Source of the DNA: a virus
Strand: one strand, 5' to 3'
Length of the DNA stretch: 16,103 nucleotides
UHGV virus genome: UHGV-0276752
Shown: positions 5,972 to 8,386 of the stretch, in pieces
Layout of the letters: each line of letters opens with the position of its first letter
Position numbering within the stretch: position 1 is the stretch's first letter
Notes under the pieces: generated by a model
Databases searched by the model: none
The model's input: the letters and a program-made list of their open reading frames with translations, nothing else
Told to the model about the DNA's origin: nothing
Made by a program: the position numbers and the translations under genes

Positions 5972-6156
5972 ACGCCACAATTCAAACGATACCAGAGCTT
6001 CTTATCCAGACACGAGGCAATCAGACCGAAGTGGCGAGGATGCTTTCCTGCGCAAGAGGAACAGTGCTCAAGTACAACCGAGACAGCAAAGGTGAGCGTC
6101 ACGTAATAGTTAACGGCGTCCTGATGGTCAAACAGGGCAAGAGGGGAAGACGATGA
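5968..6156 (+). CDS. ninH: NinH
   Basis: ATG 5968. MNATIQTIPELLIQTRGNQTEVARMLSCARGTVLKYNRDSKGERHVIVNGVLMV resembles lambda NinH (..KTIPDMLVEAYGNQTEVARRL.CSRGTV.KY.., from memory). HTH-like. Confidence 0.75.
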   Translation: MNATIQTIPELLIQTRGNQTEVARMLSCARGTVLKYNRDSKGERHVIVNGVLMVKQGKRGRR

Positions 6157-6641
6157 GCATAAGAGAACTAAACCTCACCAAAGAACAGCAGGAGTGGCTG
6201 AATGGCTGGCTTGAACTGTGGGGCGCATGGGTTTATTCAGGTCGTCTTGAAAAGCGCATGAGCAGCGTAATAGCGAAGTTCATGGAGAGCGTAGAGCCGG
6301 GAAGAGTTATGACAAGGCCAATGTGCAATGATGATGATGGAATGTTGATTTCTCAGGTCGTCGATTCCGTCATGTACATTGACAAGAAAGCCTTTGGCAT
6401 CCTCCTCAGCTACTACGCCCATGGATCTTCCAAGCACGCCATTGCATCTTACTATCATCGTGTCGCAAGACCTCGCAAGATGTTATGCCGGGGCGGCGGG
6501 CGTATTCAAAAACCATCGCTCGCAACCTGTCGCCGGGAAGTTGACGAAATCCTCAATGCTTCGTTGTTTATGATTTACCCGGTTCTGGATAGTGCGTTTA
6601 AAAACCGGAAACGTGTAGAGAAAATTAAACATGTAGCATAG
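6153..6641 (+). CDS. Q: Late-gene antiterminator Q (P22 gene 23 / phage 82-933W Q type)
   Basis: 162 aa. ELWGAWVYSG motif and overall pattern resemble Q proteins of 82/933W/P22 type. Located between ninH and the late promoter/lysis genes. ATGA overlap with ninH. Confidence 0.8.
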   Translation: MSIRELNLTKEQQEWLNGWLELWGAWVYSGRLEKRMSSVIAKFMESVEPGRVMTRPMCNDDDGMLISQVVDSVMYIDKKAFGILLSYYAHGSSKHAIASYYHRVARPRKMLCRGGGRIQKPSLATCRREVDEILNASLFMIYPVLDSAFKNRKRVEKIKHVA

Positions 6642-6647
6642 AACGTG

Positions 6648-6682
6648 TTGACATCATTGAGCAAATGAGCAACACTATTCGC
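6648..6682 (+). promoter_or_regulatory. Candidate late promoter PR' (with expected qut region) just downstream of Q
   Basis: Perfect -35 hexamer TTGACA at 6648-6653, 7 nt after the Q stop. The -10 is not clear-cut (candidates ACACTA/CACTAT about 17-20 nt downstream). Position is as in lambda. Confidence 0.35.
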
Positions 6683-7012
6683 ATAAGCTGCCGTTAGTGA
6701 CTCTTAAGTTGCAACGGTGGCTTTTTTTGTTTGCACAACAGGTAAGAGCATTGAACCCGCAGACCTCGCGGAATTGGTGAAAGGTGCCGCGCAGTGCTCT
6801 TATCGTTGTGGTGAATGCACAGGCTGATGTGTAAGGGCAAGAATCTTTCGCTGGATTCGGTGTGGCCACGTAGCCCGCTGTAGGCAGTTGCAGCAAACCG
6901 GAGATCAGCACCGGTCGCCACAATCCAAACTGAGCCGTAGCCACTGGCTATCCTGAATTCATCAGTGATAGTTATGCTGCGGCCTTCTACACATGATCTT
7001 CGTGAAAGCGGG

Positions 7013-7050
7013 TGGCATGAGGTTGAGCTAACAACCTCCTGCCGTTTTGC
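7013..7050 (+). terminator. Rho-independent terminator candidate (tR'-like) ending the short late-leader transcript
   Basis: GGCATGAGGTTG (7013-7024), loop AGCTAA, CAACCTCCTGCC (7031-7042): a 12-bp stem with one mismatch, followed by GTTTTG. A weaker hairpin plus T7 run lies at about 6690-6730. Confidence 0.5.
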
Positions 7051-7148
7051 CCGTGCATATCGGTCACGAACAAATCTGATTACTAAACACAGTAGCCTGG
7101 ATTTGTTCTATCAGTAACCGACCATATTCCTAATTAAATAGAGCAAAT

Positions 7149-7162
7149 CCCCTTATTGGGGG
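7149..7162 (+). promoter_or_regulatory. sdi-type stem-loop (CCCC-TTATT-GGGGG) upstream of the S dual start
   Basis: Hairpin 7-20 nt upstream of ATG-AAG-ATG. In lambda this structure sets the S107/S105 initiation ratio. Confidence 0.6.
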
Positions 7163-7168
7163 TAAGAC

Positions 7169-7492
7169 ATGAAGATGCCAGAAAAAAATGACCTGTTAGC
7201 CGCCATTCTCGCGGCAAAGGAACAAGGCATCGGGGCAATCCTTGCGTTTGCAATGGCGTACCTTCGCGGCAGATATAATGGCGGTGCGTTTACAAAAACA
7301 GTAATCGACGCAACGATGTGCGCCATTATCGCCTGGTTCATTCGTGACCTTCTCGACTTCGCCGGACTAAGTAGCAATCTCGCTTATATAACGAGCGTGT
7401 TTATCGGCTACATCGGTACTGACTCGATTGGTTCGCTTATCAAACGCTTCGCTGCTAAAAAAGCCGGAGTAGAAGATGGTGGAAATCAATAA
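7169..7492 (+). CDS. S: Class I holin S (S107 antiholin from ATG 7169; S105 holin from ATG 7175)
   Basis: [39 protein letters not shown]... is near-identical to lambda S as I recall it (one or two substitutions). Three predicted transmembrane segments; Met-Lys-Met dual start. Confidence 0.95.
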
Positions 7493-7952
7493 TCAACGTA
7501 AGGCGTTCCTCGATATGCTGGCGTGGTCAGAGGGAACAGATAACGGACGTCAGAAAACCAGAAATCATGGTTATGACGTCATTGTAGGCGGAGAGCTATT
7601 CACTGATTACTCCGATCACCCTCGCAAACTTGTCACGCTAAACCCAAAACTCAAATCAACAGCCGCCGGACGTTACCAGCTTCTTTCCCGTTGGTGGGAT
7701 GCCTACCGCAAGCAGCTTGGCCTGAAAGACTTCTCTCCGAAAAGCCAGGACGCTGTGGCACTGCAACAGATTAAAGAGCGTGGCGCTTTACCGATGATTG
7801 ACCGCGGTGATATTCGTCAGGCAATCGACCGTTGCAGTAATATCTGGGCTTCACTTCCGGGGGCTGGTTATGGTCAGTTCGAGCATAAGGCTGACAGCCT
7901 GATTGCAAAATTCAAAGAAGCAGGCGGAACGGTCAGAGAGATTGAGGTATGA
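7476..7952 (+). CDS. R: Endolysin R (lambda-type lytic transglycosylase)
   Basis: [42 protein letters not shown]... is near-identical to lambda R from memory. Overlaps the S 3' end as in lambda. Confidence 0.95.
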
Positions 7953-8386
7953 GCAGAGTAACCGCGATTATCTCCGCTCTGGTTATCTGCATCATCGTCT
8001 GCCTGTCATGGGCTGTTAATCATTACCGTGATAACGCAATCGCCTACAAAGAGCAGCGCGATAAAGCCACGTACATCATCGCTGACATGCAGAAGCGTCA
8101 ACGTGATGTAGCAGAACTCGACGCCAGATACACAAAGGAGCTTGCTGATGCTAACGCGACTATCGAAAGTCTCCGTGCTGATGTTTCTGCTGGTCGTAAG
8201 CGCCTGCAAGTCGCCGCCACCTGTGCAAAGTCAACGACCGGAGCCAGCAGCATGGGCGATGGAGAAAGCCCAAGACTTACAGCAGATGCTGAACTCAATT
8301 ATTACCGTCTCCGAAGTGGAATCGACAGGATAACCGCGCAGGTTAACTACCTGCAGGAATACATCAGGACGCAATGCCTTCGATGA
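7949..8386 (+). CDS. Rz: Rz (i-spanin, inner-membrane component)
   Basis: N-terminus [31 protein letters not shown] matches lambda Rz. N-terminal transmembrane segment plus coiled-coil periplasmic domain. ATGA overlap with R. Confidence 0.9.
8142..8333 (+). CDS. Rz1: Rz1 (o-spanin lipoprotein), embedded in an alternative frame of Rz
   Basis: ORF lies wholly inside Rz in a different frame. Signal peptide plus lipobox (LLVVSAC), then a Pro-rich mature region ([16 protein letters not shown]). Start may be 8142, 8148 or 8181. Confidence 0.8.

Follow-up and report, generated by a model that had tools for sequence, protein, structure and literature searches.

The late genes of phage 21 are reportedly controlled by a compact cassette composed of the antiterminator Q21, the late promoter PR'21, a Q-binding element (QBE), a pause element and the terminator tR'21, as is said to have been described by Guo, Kainz and Roberts in 1991 and by Yin et al. 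in 2019. Constitutive transcription from PR' that runs into an immediate terminator yields short RNAs in lysogens, such as StxS and the lambda 6S RNA, and phage 21 is listed together with these systems (PMC7547250). The window analyzed in the present study is a stretch of 16,103 nucleotides (nt) from the viral genome UHGV-0276752, in which a Q gene ends with the stop codon TAG at 6639-6641 and the holin gene S starts with ATG at 7169. The gap of 527 bp between the two genes (6642-7168) had been regarded as unusually long in an earlier annotation made from the sequence by a model, hereafter the original prediction, but the homologous Q-S gap of lambda is 676 bp, and therefore the length is not unusual. 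When folded as a single RNA, the whole leader has considerably more structure than shuffles of it (z-score -6.1). We consider it probable that the gap is the late-operon leader of a phage 21/lambda mosaic that carries a tRNA-like chassis, which is cut from the transcript.

From the T-run of tR' onward, the window aligns as a homologue of the lambda DNA lying 3' of lambda tR'. Between tR' and a conserved AACTGAGCCGTAGCCACTG block (at 6928 in the window) lies a slot whose contents alternate among related phages. In a survey of 124 loci sharing this block, the slot was filled with tRNA-Asn plus tRNA-Thr (Sf6 type) in 61 loci, a lambda-type sequence in 30, an HK75-type sequence in 18, the window type in 11 and others in four, and these fillings combine freely with Q regions of the 21, Sf6 and lambda types. 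The view of the locus as a cargo site, put forward in the original prediction, agrees well with the tRNA pair found exactly here. Its suggestion that the region is either a structured non-coding RNA or a scar held in the first part, because a covarying RNA element is present, but not in the second, because the slot is filled with a conserved element. The HK75-type filling (1322-1454 of locus L002 from phage HK75, and 17 other loci) corresponds to a 133-nt cloverleaf-like RNA with a 7-bp acceptor-like stem, a D-like arm (AGCUC AAUGGC GAGCU), two extra hairpins and a canonical T arm (GCCGG UUCGAUU CCGGC), which is called by neither ARAGORN nor the GenBank record. Just 5' of the leader modules of two other loci, L090 (about 8018-8200, minus strand) and L015, is a tmRNA-like stretch that encodes a tag-like reading frame, ANDDVVLMAA-stop in the former and ANDDLMLMAA-stop in the latter; it has weak Rfam similarity to tmRNA_permuted and beta_tmRNA, and ARAGORN calls no tmRNA there.

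The filling found in the window is a 123-nt element, which we call the frame, where a closing stem (stem P1) encloses two small hairpins separated by an insert (Table 1). Comparative analysis of the sequences supports the three predicted helices of the frame, a partner hairpin just upstream, the slot and the hypervariability of the insert. The 5' signature of the family (6805-6833 in the window) consists of a stem P1 whose 5' side ends with GUG and whose 3' side starts with CAC, the linker AA(U) and the loop GGCUGA, and these columns are conserved across 134 frames. The 3' signature (6897-6924) is a 5-bp hairpin, with the loop AGAUCAGCR, placed immediately next to the 3' strand of stem P1, and AGATCAGCA is the most frequent form of this loop (76 of 166 frames). 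In an alignment of the 134 distinct frames, 95.7% of the cells are paired and 15 of the 24 pairs show double changes. The double-change cells number 186 against 36 expected, a result that none of 500 shuffles equaled, and controls with slid partners gave only 26-50% pairing. Hairpin 1 is paired in 98.7% of its cells, with double changes in four of five pairs, and hairpin 2, whose partners were partly chosen by pairing, in 98.1%, also with four of five pairs covarying. The 3' partners in this alignment had been picked partly by complementarity; in a recount on 115 frames they were chosen by the loop motif alone. Stem P1, represented by 28 distinct 5' strands, was then fully paired (7/7) in 89 of the 115 frames, compared with 31% after an exchange of partners among elements. 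Full pairing was also seen for hairpin 1 (5/5), on which no selection for pairing had ever been made, in 103 frames and for hairpin 2 in 84. G.U pairs far exceed A.C pairs in all helices (12 versus 1 in hairpin 1), indicating that the plus strand, which is the transcribed one, is the strand that pairs as RNA. The checks proposed in the original prediction divide: folding and covariance analysis returned three covarying helices across the 134 distinct frames, while scans of 6642-7168 for tRNA genes and known RNA families yielded neither a tRNA nor an Rfam match. ARAGORN found no tRNA gene in the window, the Rfam 15 covariance models (which include YrlA/Y RNA, tmRNA, C4 antisense RNA, hammerhead, twister, pistol, hatchet and HDV-like families) gave nothing at the gathering score in the window and nine related loci, and even at E values up to 10 nothing, the tRNA model included, was found in 6600-7200.

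We call the frame tRNA-like on the basis of its position, its topology and its company. It aligns with the position of tRNA-Thr in the Sf6-type filling, its 3' part matching the T arm, acceptor strand and CCA. Stem P1 runs straight into the 5-bp hairpin 2, as an acceptor stem runs into a T stem, and two nucleotides lie between stem P1 and hairpin 1, like tRNA positions 8 and 9. The HK75-type filling has the same stem P1 and position, with D-like (AAUGGC) and T-like (UUCGAUU) loops, and in phage P1 and P1-like contigs frames stand directly 3' of tRNA-Asn and tRNA-Thr. Hairpin 1 is thus proposed to be D-arm-like; its loop and that of hairpin 2 would mimic the elbow of a tRNA through their complementarity, and the insert would replace the anticodon arm. 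The loop sequences GCUGA and UCAGC are complementary in 99.6% of the aligned cells, although the search pattern prescribed the sequence of loop 1, and in one locus (L037) both loops are altered together (GGUCGA with AGAUCGACA) such that the five loop-loop pairs are kept. The possibility that the frame is itself a tRNA was rejected, because it has no anticodon arm, has a second loop of 9 nt and is undetected by tRNA finders.

The frame appears from sequence comparison to have a regular companion in the long interrupted hairpin that precedes it, which has a free energy (dG) of -36 kcal/mol and a z-score of -4.2 and which retains the stem of its lambda counterpart with a different tip. Of 139 distinct cases, 46 have an upstream arm that pairs with at least 17 of the 20 nt preceding stem P1, compared with 3 of 149 shuffles, and the sequences of the upstream arms are highly diverse. 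The hairpin is a candidate site for RNase III or other processing. Its end and the beginning of stem P1 are one and the same sequence: GUUGUG at 6805-6810 can pair either with CACAAC at 6734-6739 or with CACAAU at 6919-6924, and formation of the hairpin and formation of the frame are thereby coupled. The hairpin takes GUUGUG in the fold of the whole leader, and stem P1 takes it in the isolated element. At other loci this three-part layout recurs with different sequences, and selection therefore appears to act on both pairings. One lambda-type late leader (L090) has a type I hammerhead (minus strand, 7921-7967) at the tip of its long hairpin; the core of the hammerhead (CUGACGA...GAAAC...GUC) is intact, and its match to RF00163 is below threshold (24.7 bits, E = 0.0012; gathering score 34).

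Table 1 Features of the Q-S region of the window.
Feature	Position	Strand	Basis or detail
Q antiterminator gene, phage 21 type	6153-6641	+	Q21 chains of PDB 6JNX/6P18; Pfam PF06530
PR'21 -35 hexamer, TTGACA	6648-6653	+	sequence; aligns with annotated late promoter of Sf6 and HK75
Q21-binding element, two direct TGAGCA repeats	6658-6671	+	copies at 6658-6663 and 6666-6671
Putative PR'21 -10 hexamer, AACACT	6671-6676	+	-21/-13 numbering; alignment to CATAAT of Sf6
Predicted transcription start, +1 = A	6683	+	subsite C residues 6662 and 6670 = -21 and -13
Candidate -10-like sigma70 pause element, TAAGCT, +2 to +7	6684-6689	+	published bubble
tR'21 intrinsic terminator	6685-6730	+	17-pair hairpin 6685-6723, then U7 6724-6730
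Long interrupted hairpin, 6 + 13 bp stem, variable tip	6734-6810	+	fold
tRNA-like frame RNA, 123 nt	6805-6927	+	minimum-energy fold of isolated element and covariation
Stem P1 of frame, 9 bp	6805-6813 with 6916-6924	+	GUUGUGGUG pairs with CGCCACAAU
AA linker of frame	6814-6815	+	
Hairpin 1 of frame	6816-6833	+	loop GGCUGA 6822-6827
Variable insert of frame, 63 nt of small hairpins	6834-6896	+	
Hairpin 2 of frame	6897-6915	+	loop AGAUCAGCA 6902-6910; abuts 3' strand of stem P1 directly
CCA of frame	6925-6927	+	directly after stem P1
First hairpin of conserved lambda/Sf6-type block	6935-6984	+	whole-leader fold
Hairpin 7014-7043 then GUUUUG, possible secondary terminator	7014-7049	+	fold
Conserved GAACAAAUC...GAUUUGUUC hairpin of lambda-type leader	7066-7110	+	fold; identical sequence in lambda
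sdi stem-loop CCCCUUAUUGGGGG	7149-7162	+	identical to lambda; precedes S starts ATG 7169 and ATG 7175
Holin S, 107 aa	7169-7492	+	Pfam PF05106, E = 2e-30

The family extends well beyond lambdoid phages. The 30-nt 5' half of the frame matches 199 of 50,697 phage records, including those of Klebsiella (62), Escherichia (53) and Pseudomonas (36) phages, and further carriers are phages of Aeromonas, Cronobacter, Yersinia and Xanthomonas, and phage P1. Scans with short patterns from either half found hundreds of viral contigs among the matches listed. On genome contigs a 14-base pattern gave mostly chance matches, but two bacterial loci outside the enterics, in Massilia and Nitrosospira, pass the structural filter and carry the frame. 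The frame is absent from the late leader of phi80, a phage with an RNase P-processed RNA called M3. It is annotated as an RNA in none of the phage or RefSeq records examined, and searches of the literature by core sequence and by keyword found no description of it within the literature they reached, the keyword route leading only to YrlA. The frame RNA therefore is apparently undescribed, and the phage 21 switch is already known.

Where frames are placed within operons, they are oriented with the transcribed strand, as in lambdoid late leaders, the ban operon of phage P1 and the early operon of an Stx2 phage. Many copies are followed by a terminator-like hairpin and T-run of their own, and units consisting of the hairpin and the frame also occur in tandem and among tRNA genes. 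The ban operon leader of phage P1 (AF234172.1, 69.5-70.2 kb; 1185-1880 of locus L362) holds three such units on the plus strand, and the record places the putative proteins Plp and Upl over them on the minus strand, probably a mis-annotation. In the Stx2a phage WGPS2 (2501-2650 of locus L484) and in locus L275, the frame lies in an early operon, where a CI-like repressor gene precedes it and a deoxynucleoside monophosphate (dNMP) phosphatase gene follows it, showing that frames are not limited to late leaders. In four loci (L133, L156, L175 and L218) a conserved spacer motif, CCAGACGATATMTGAGTGNCTTAAAAAACAGATGGGAGCYGGTGGAANCCYGGCA, recurs between units and holds a GCYGG...CCYGGC hairpin. Analysis of the nearest open reading frames (ORFs) was too noisy for statistics in G+C-rich contigs.

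The inserts are as diverse as the frame is constant. The distinct inserts that we collected number 161 and range from 5 to 161 nt, with lengths up to about 200 nt among the matches listed; clustering by sequence divides the 158 that are 20 nt or longer into 115 groups. The insert of the window has no match in the host and occurs in 36 of 5426 Escherichia coli genomes. In four loci (L199, L210, L223 and L226) the insert copies a helix of 16S rRNA (around nt 254-282), with 85-93% identity over 29-40 nt and compensatory differences, and as many as seven rrn copies in a single E. coli genome match it.

A sequence of events that would connect these features is as follows. Without Q, RNA polymerase would start at about 6683 and stop in the U7 tract at 6724-6730. 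Two Q21 protomers would bind to the TGAGCA sites, and the Q21-loaded polymerase would read through tR'. The remaining part of the read-through RNA, about 440 nt, would fold into the long hairpin, the 123-nt frame and the lambda-type leader hairpins, followed by the holin-tuning sdi. RNase III might then cut the flanking long hairpin, and RNase P together with 3' trimming might act on the tRNA-like stem, such that a stable small RNA of about 120 nt presenting the insert would be released and the late mRNA would be left beginning at the protective hairpin at 6935-6984. We infer the excision by RNase P and/or RNase III from the shape of the element, its position among tRNA genes and the flanking hairpin. 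The alternative fillings of the slot are themselves processing substrates, i.e., tRNAs and, in L090, the hammerhead. The CI RNA of P4 and the C4 RNA of P1 are matured by RNase P. For the late leader of lambda, sites of RNase III processing were reportedly the subject of a 1988 paper by Daniels et al., to judge from its title as cited in PMC7547250.

Several observations weigh against this reconstruction. The processing of the frame by either RNase is a proposed step, and the predicted positions of +1 and tR' in the window phage come from sequence comparison. The isolated element (6805-6927) folds with a modest z-score of -2.0, and in the minimum-energy fold of the whole leader, where GUUGUG goes to the long hairpin, stem P1 does not form. 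The bias from the choice of partners in the alignment is corrected only by the recount with the loop motif. The loop-loop pairing has a single locus with a double change, together with single mismatches in several loci, and is thinly supported. With respect to the likeness to tRNA, the loop of hairpin 2 is not a 7-nt T-loop but one of 9 nt, CCA follows stem P1 in only 39 of the 134 frames, and neither ARAGORN nor the Rfam tRNA model recognizes the frame. As for a function of the insert, no excess of complementarity (antisense) to flanking phage genes or DNA was found among the inserts, and resemblance to a host RNA or the rrn operon was confined to one insert type.

What the released RNA would do is a more speculative matter. 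One possibility, which we put forward tentatively and consider unlikely as it stands, is that the frame serves as an "RNA display" chassis, by which the host tRNA machinery would release and stabilize hypervariable inserts that act as decoys or aptamers against host factors or defense systems. The corresponding idea that such units are expressed for this purpose from antiterminated operon leaders in lambdoid, P1-like, Klebsiella and Pseudomonas phages is equally a low-probability proposal.

Another possibility is that the hairpin-plus-frame unit is never released as a small RNA but acts in cis as a regulatory RNA, either by modifying RNA polymerase like the put sites or as a conformational switch based on GUUGUG. 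The units do belong to leaders of operons that are long and rich in terminators (the late operon, the phage P1 ban operon and an early operon downstream of a CI-like repressor), and the alternative pairing of GUUGUG is conserved and covaries. We nevertheless consider a cis-acting role quite unlikely because inserts that vary from 5 to 161 nt, or to about 200 nt among the matches listed, are ill-suited to a single cis mechanism, because many copies have terminator-like hairpins and T-runs of their own, which suggests stand-alone genes, and because tandem copies exist, as do units that stand among tRNA genes; in the late operon, moreover, antitermination is already supplied by Q.

The third possibility to be considered is that the slot is filled with a decayed tRNA or a functionless recombination scar, the conserved ends being leftovers of a tRNA gene. 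That the element occupies the exact position of tRNA-Thr, CCA included, that no tool calls a tRNA in it, and that the insert of the window is rare in E. coli genomes would all fit with decay. Decay, however, would not yield compensatory changes in three helices over 134 frames, nor 28 different strands of stem P1 matched by their partners together with invariant loops, nor would it readily account for the spread of the frame to phages of Klebsiella, Pseudomonas, Aeromonas and Xanthomonas, to phage P1, and to Massilia and Nitrosospira. This explanation is therefore very unlikely.

The conserved pieces could also function as DNA, namely, as boundary sequences for mosaic exchange or as recombinase sites, with the helices being inverted repeats. 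"Boundary sequence" features of the type described by Casjens are annotated over the region in CUS-3 and Sf6, the fillings have been exchanged between phages with different Q types, and the short direct repeats CACAAC and CACAAT flank the hairpin-plus-frame unit. Nonetheless, the excess of G.U over A.C in all helices points to pairing of the plus-strand RNA, the flanking repeat covaries with its internal complement, unlike a plain target duplication, and wherever the context of the element is known, its orientation is that of the operon. A DNA-level role thus appears highly improbable as the explanation, and we return to the probable reading, that of a mosaic late leader with an excisable tRNA-like element, to describe the switch that would control its transcription.

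The 162-residue product of the Q gene is identical to Q21 (PDB 6JNX/6P18) at 160 of 162 residues (E = 1e-107) and also hits Pfam PF06530. In the published Q21 complex, the subsites of the QBE are direct TGAGCA repeats with C:G pairs at -21 and -13 (Shi et al. 2019, PMC6606751), and the published QBE binding oligonucleotide, GCAAATGAGCAACA (PMC6606751), is an exact match to 6661-6674 of the window. The two TGAGCA subsites are spaced by 8 bp and lie between the -35 and -10 hexamers. Equating the C residues of the subsites, at 6662 and 6670, with -21 and -13 places +1 at A6683. The putative -10 hexamer AACACT is then separated from TTGACA by a 17-bp spacer and agrees with the consensus at three of six positions, including -11A and -7T. 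A bubble from +3 to +15 and an arrested state at +14 have been described for the Q21 complex (PMC6606751). The position of the candidate pause element TAAGCT fits this bubble, with the consensus matched at only three of six positions. The hairpin of tR'21 has a dG of -20.2 kcal/mol and a z-score of -5.5 versus shuffles (48-nt transcript), and the hairpin plus U7 (+3 to +48) is base-for-base identical to the annotated 21-like late terminator tR' of Sf6 and HK75. A simple consensus scan for promoters and terminators missed PR'21, tR'21 and the hairpin at 7014-7043, and so these assignments rest on homology and the literature. Taken together, the sequence identifies 6648-6730 as the phage 21 late switch with PR', QBE, pause element and tR'. 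Because a complete tR' lies at +3 to +48, the RNA made without antitermination by Q is predicted to be about 42-48 nt long, nearly all of it terminator hairpin, and not 360 nt; both its start and its stop are predictions for the window phage. In the Sf6-type system (668-1200 of locus L001, compared with 6153-6676 of the window), the Q protein is 85% identical to Q21, with the differences clustered in residues 95-150, which form the DNA-binding helix-turn-helix (for example, H95R and R127N), and the promoter has TTAGCCAT direct repeats in place of TGAGCA, followed by an identical terminator. This looks like a matched shift of Q specificity and binding site.

The original prediction had also recognized a PR'-qut-tR' cassette here, from a TTGACA right after the Q stop, a weak hairpin with a T-run, and a second hairpin with GTTTTG at 7013-7050, which it took for tR' and thus for the end of a leader RNA of about 360 nt, longer than the 6S RNA of lambda. 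All three motifs are present (TTGACA at 6 nt past the stop, T7 after the first hairpin and a second stem at 7014-7043), and the cassette does begin just after Q, the predicted start at 6683 falling inside the range of 6655-6690 given for it. The first hairpin, however, with its 17 pairs and the stability described above, is not weak, and tR' is this hairpin and not the second one, which makes the predicted product shorter than 6S RNA. A functional leader RNA of about 360 nt produced in uninduced lysogens would require the hairpin at 7014-7043 and GUUUUG to be tR'. That hairpin is real and conserved, with a dG of -17.7 to -21.2 kcal/mol and a z-score of -3.4 (its lambda counterpart has a perfect 10-bp stem with a dG of -28.2), GUUUUG is kept in 79 of 83 variants, and polymerase that had passed tR'21 could stop there to give an RNA of about 365 nt. 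On the other hand, a complete tR' of 17 pairs and U7, identical to that of Sf6 and HK75 and at least as good a terminator, sits 320 nt upstream; the second hairpin has only four U and a U.C mismatch, shows no compensatory changes across the 83 variants, in which C.A mismatches are tolerated and 7018:7039 is paired in only 30, and is missing altogether from 17 of 100 variants. We therefore give very little credence to the long leader RNA and regard the hairpin at 7014-7043 as a back-up terminator at most. Tandem late terminators were reportedly described in lambda by Luk and Szybalski. The lambda records J02459 and NC_001416 have no terminator or processing-site features in the homologous region.

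The block that follows the slot is nearly invariant across 118 loci, and consensus folding of this conserved 3' block detected no covariation, because the sequences hardly vary. The 17 downstream variants without the second hairpin, the v2 group among them, have T6 directly after their homologue of the 6935-6984 hairpin; next comes a holin gene of another kind (MKSMDKISTGIAYG...), and the hairpin has the look of an intrinsic terminator in these phages. Near the end of the leader, the sdi stem-loop is the structure that sets the ratio of S107 to S105 in lambda.

The gap was correctly described in the original prediction as poor in ORFs, the largest being two of 89 and 75 amino acids on the minus strand (6675-6944 and 6694-6921) and a GTG-initiated one of 50 amino acids on the plus strand (6965-7117), with no others of 40 amino acids or more. 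The last lies over the conserved leader and hits phrog_22751, a family of unknown function, with an E value of 1.5e-28; this ORF is probably an artefact of annotation, and the family probably gathers ORFs that were called on leader DNA because it is conserved. That the gap encodes small proteins can practically be dismissed: such ORFs do exist and the equivalent region of phage P1 is annotated with plp and upl on the opposite strand, but neither Pfam nor PHROG contains a match to the minus-strand ORFs, which cross tR', the hairpin and the frame, in a region whose fillings are replaced wholesale in relatives, and the GTG and ATG starts of the 50-residue ORF read GTA and ACG in lambda.

Compared with known systems, the promoter, QBE and tR' of the window (6648-6730) are the same as the phage 21 cassette, with no difference found there, and this part of the study confirms textbook biology and corrects the size of the leader RNA. 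Downstream, the two diverge: according to the notes in the Sf6 record, the phage 21/Sf6 type carries tRNA-Asn and tRNA-Thr, whereas the window carries the long hairpin and the frame, 3' of which is a lambda-type S/R/Rz lysis cassette. The product predicted for the 21-type switch, which is almost wholly terminator hairpin, differs from StxS and 6S RNA in that nothing in our data suggests a role in trans. The late leader of lambda resembles that of the window in the stem of the long hairpin, the hairpins at 7014-7043 and 7066-7110 and the sdi stem-loop, and it has a closing stem of the P1 type, GUUGUGCUG...CAGCACAAC-CCA. It differs in that the interior of the closed domain has neither the GGCUGA hairpin nor the AGAUCAGCA hairpin, that its Q belongs to an unrelated family, and that 194 nt of 6S RNA lie between PR' and tR', as against about 45 nt in the window; the 194-nt segment is absent from the window, and homology begins at the T-run of the terminator.

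The tRNA-Asn plus tRNA-Thr cassette of Sf6, BTP1, P1 and their relatives occupies the same position as the frame, between tR' and the AACUGAGCCGUAGCC block, and differs from it in having an anticodon arm and lacking the 9-nt second loop. If the preferred reading is right, it would provide a testable reason why tRNAs alternate with other RNAs in the slot after tR', would offer a natural equivalent to the "tRNA scaffold" engineered for RNA expression in E. coli, and would correct gene annotation in many phage genomes. The covarying frame has stood unannotated in some of the best-studied phages, i.e., lambda relatives and the ban operon of phage P1, and its release as a stable RNA, if it occurs, would make it the founder of a new phage small-RNA family.

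The RNAs closest to it in general design are tmRNA, YrlA, the CI RNA of P4 and the C4 RNAs of P1 and P7, in which, as in the phage elements described here, a module shaped like a tRNA is fused with a part that is not tRNA. Such tRNA-like RNAs are found in phages, and tRNA enzymes process them or have been proposed to do so. Among them, tmRNA has a tag reading frame, and YrlA is circularly permuted relative to tRNA and adjoins the gene for Ro60 (PMC4201824); an identity of the frame with YrlA Y RNA is ruled out by this permuted topology, the linkage to Ro60 and the lack of an Rfam match. None of the four pairs an invariant frame with hypervariable inserts, and the RNA display proposal, if it were true, would set the frame apart as a phage non-coding RNA of a new class, not a variant form of tRNA, tmRNA or Y RNA.

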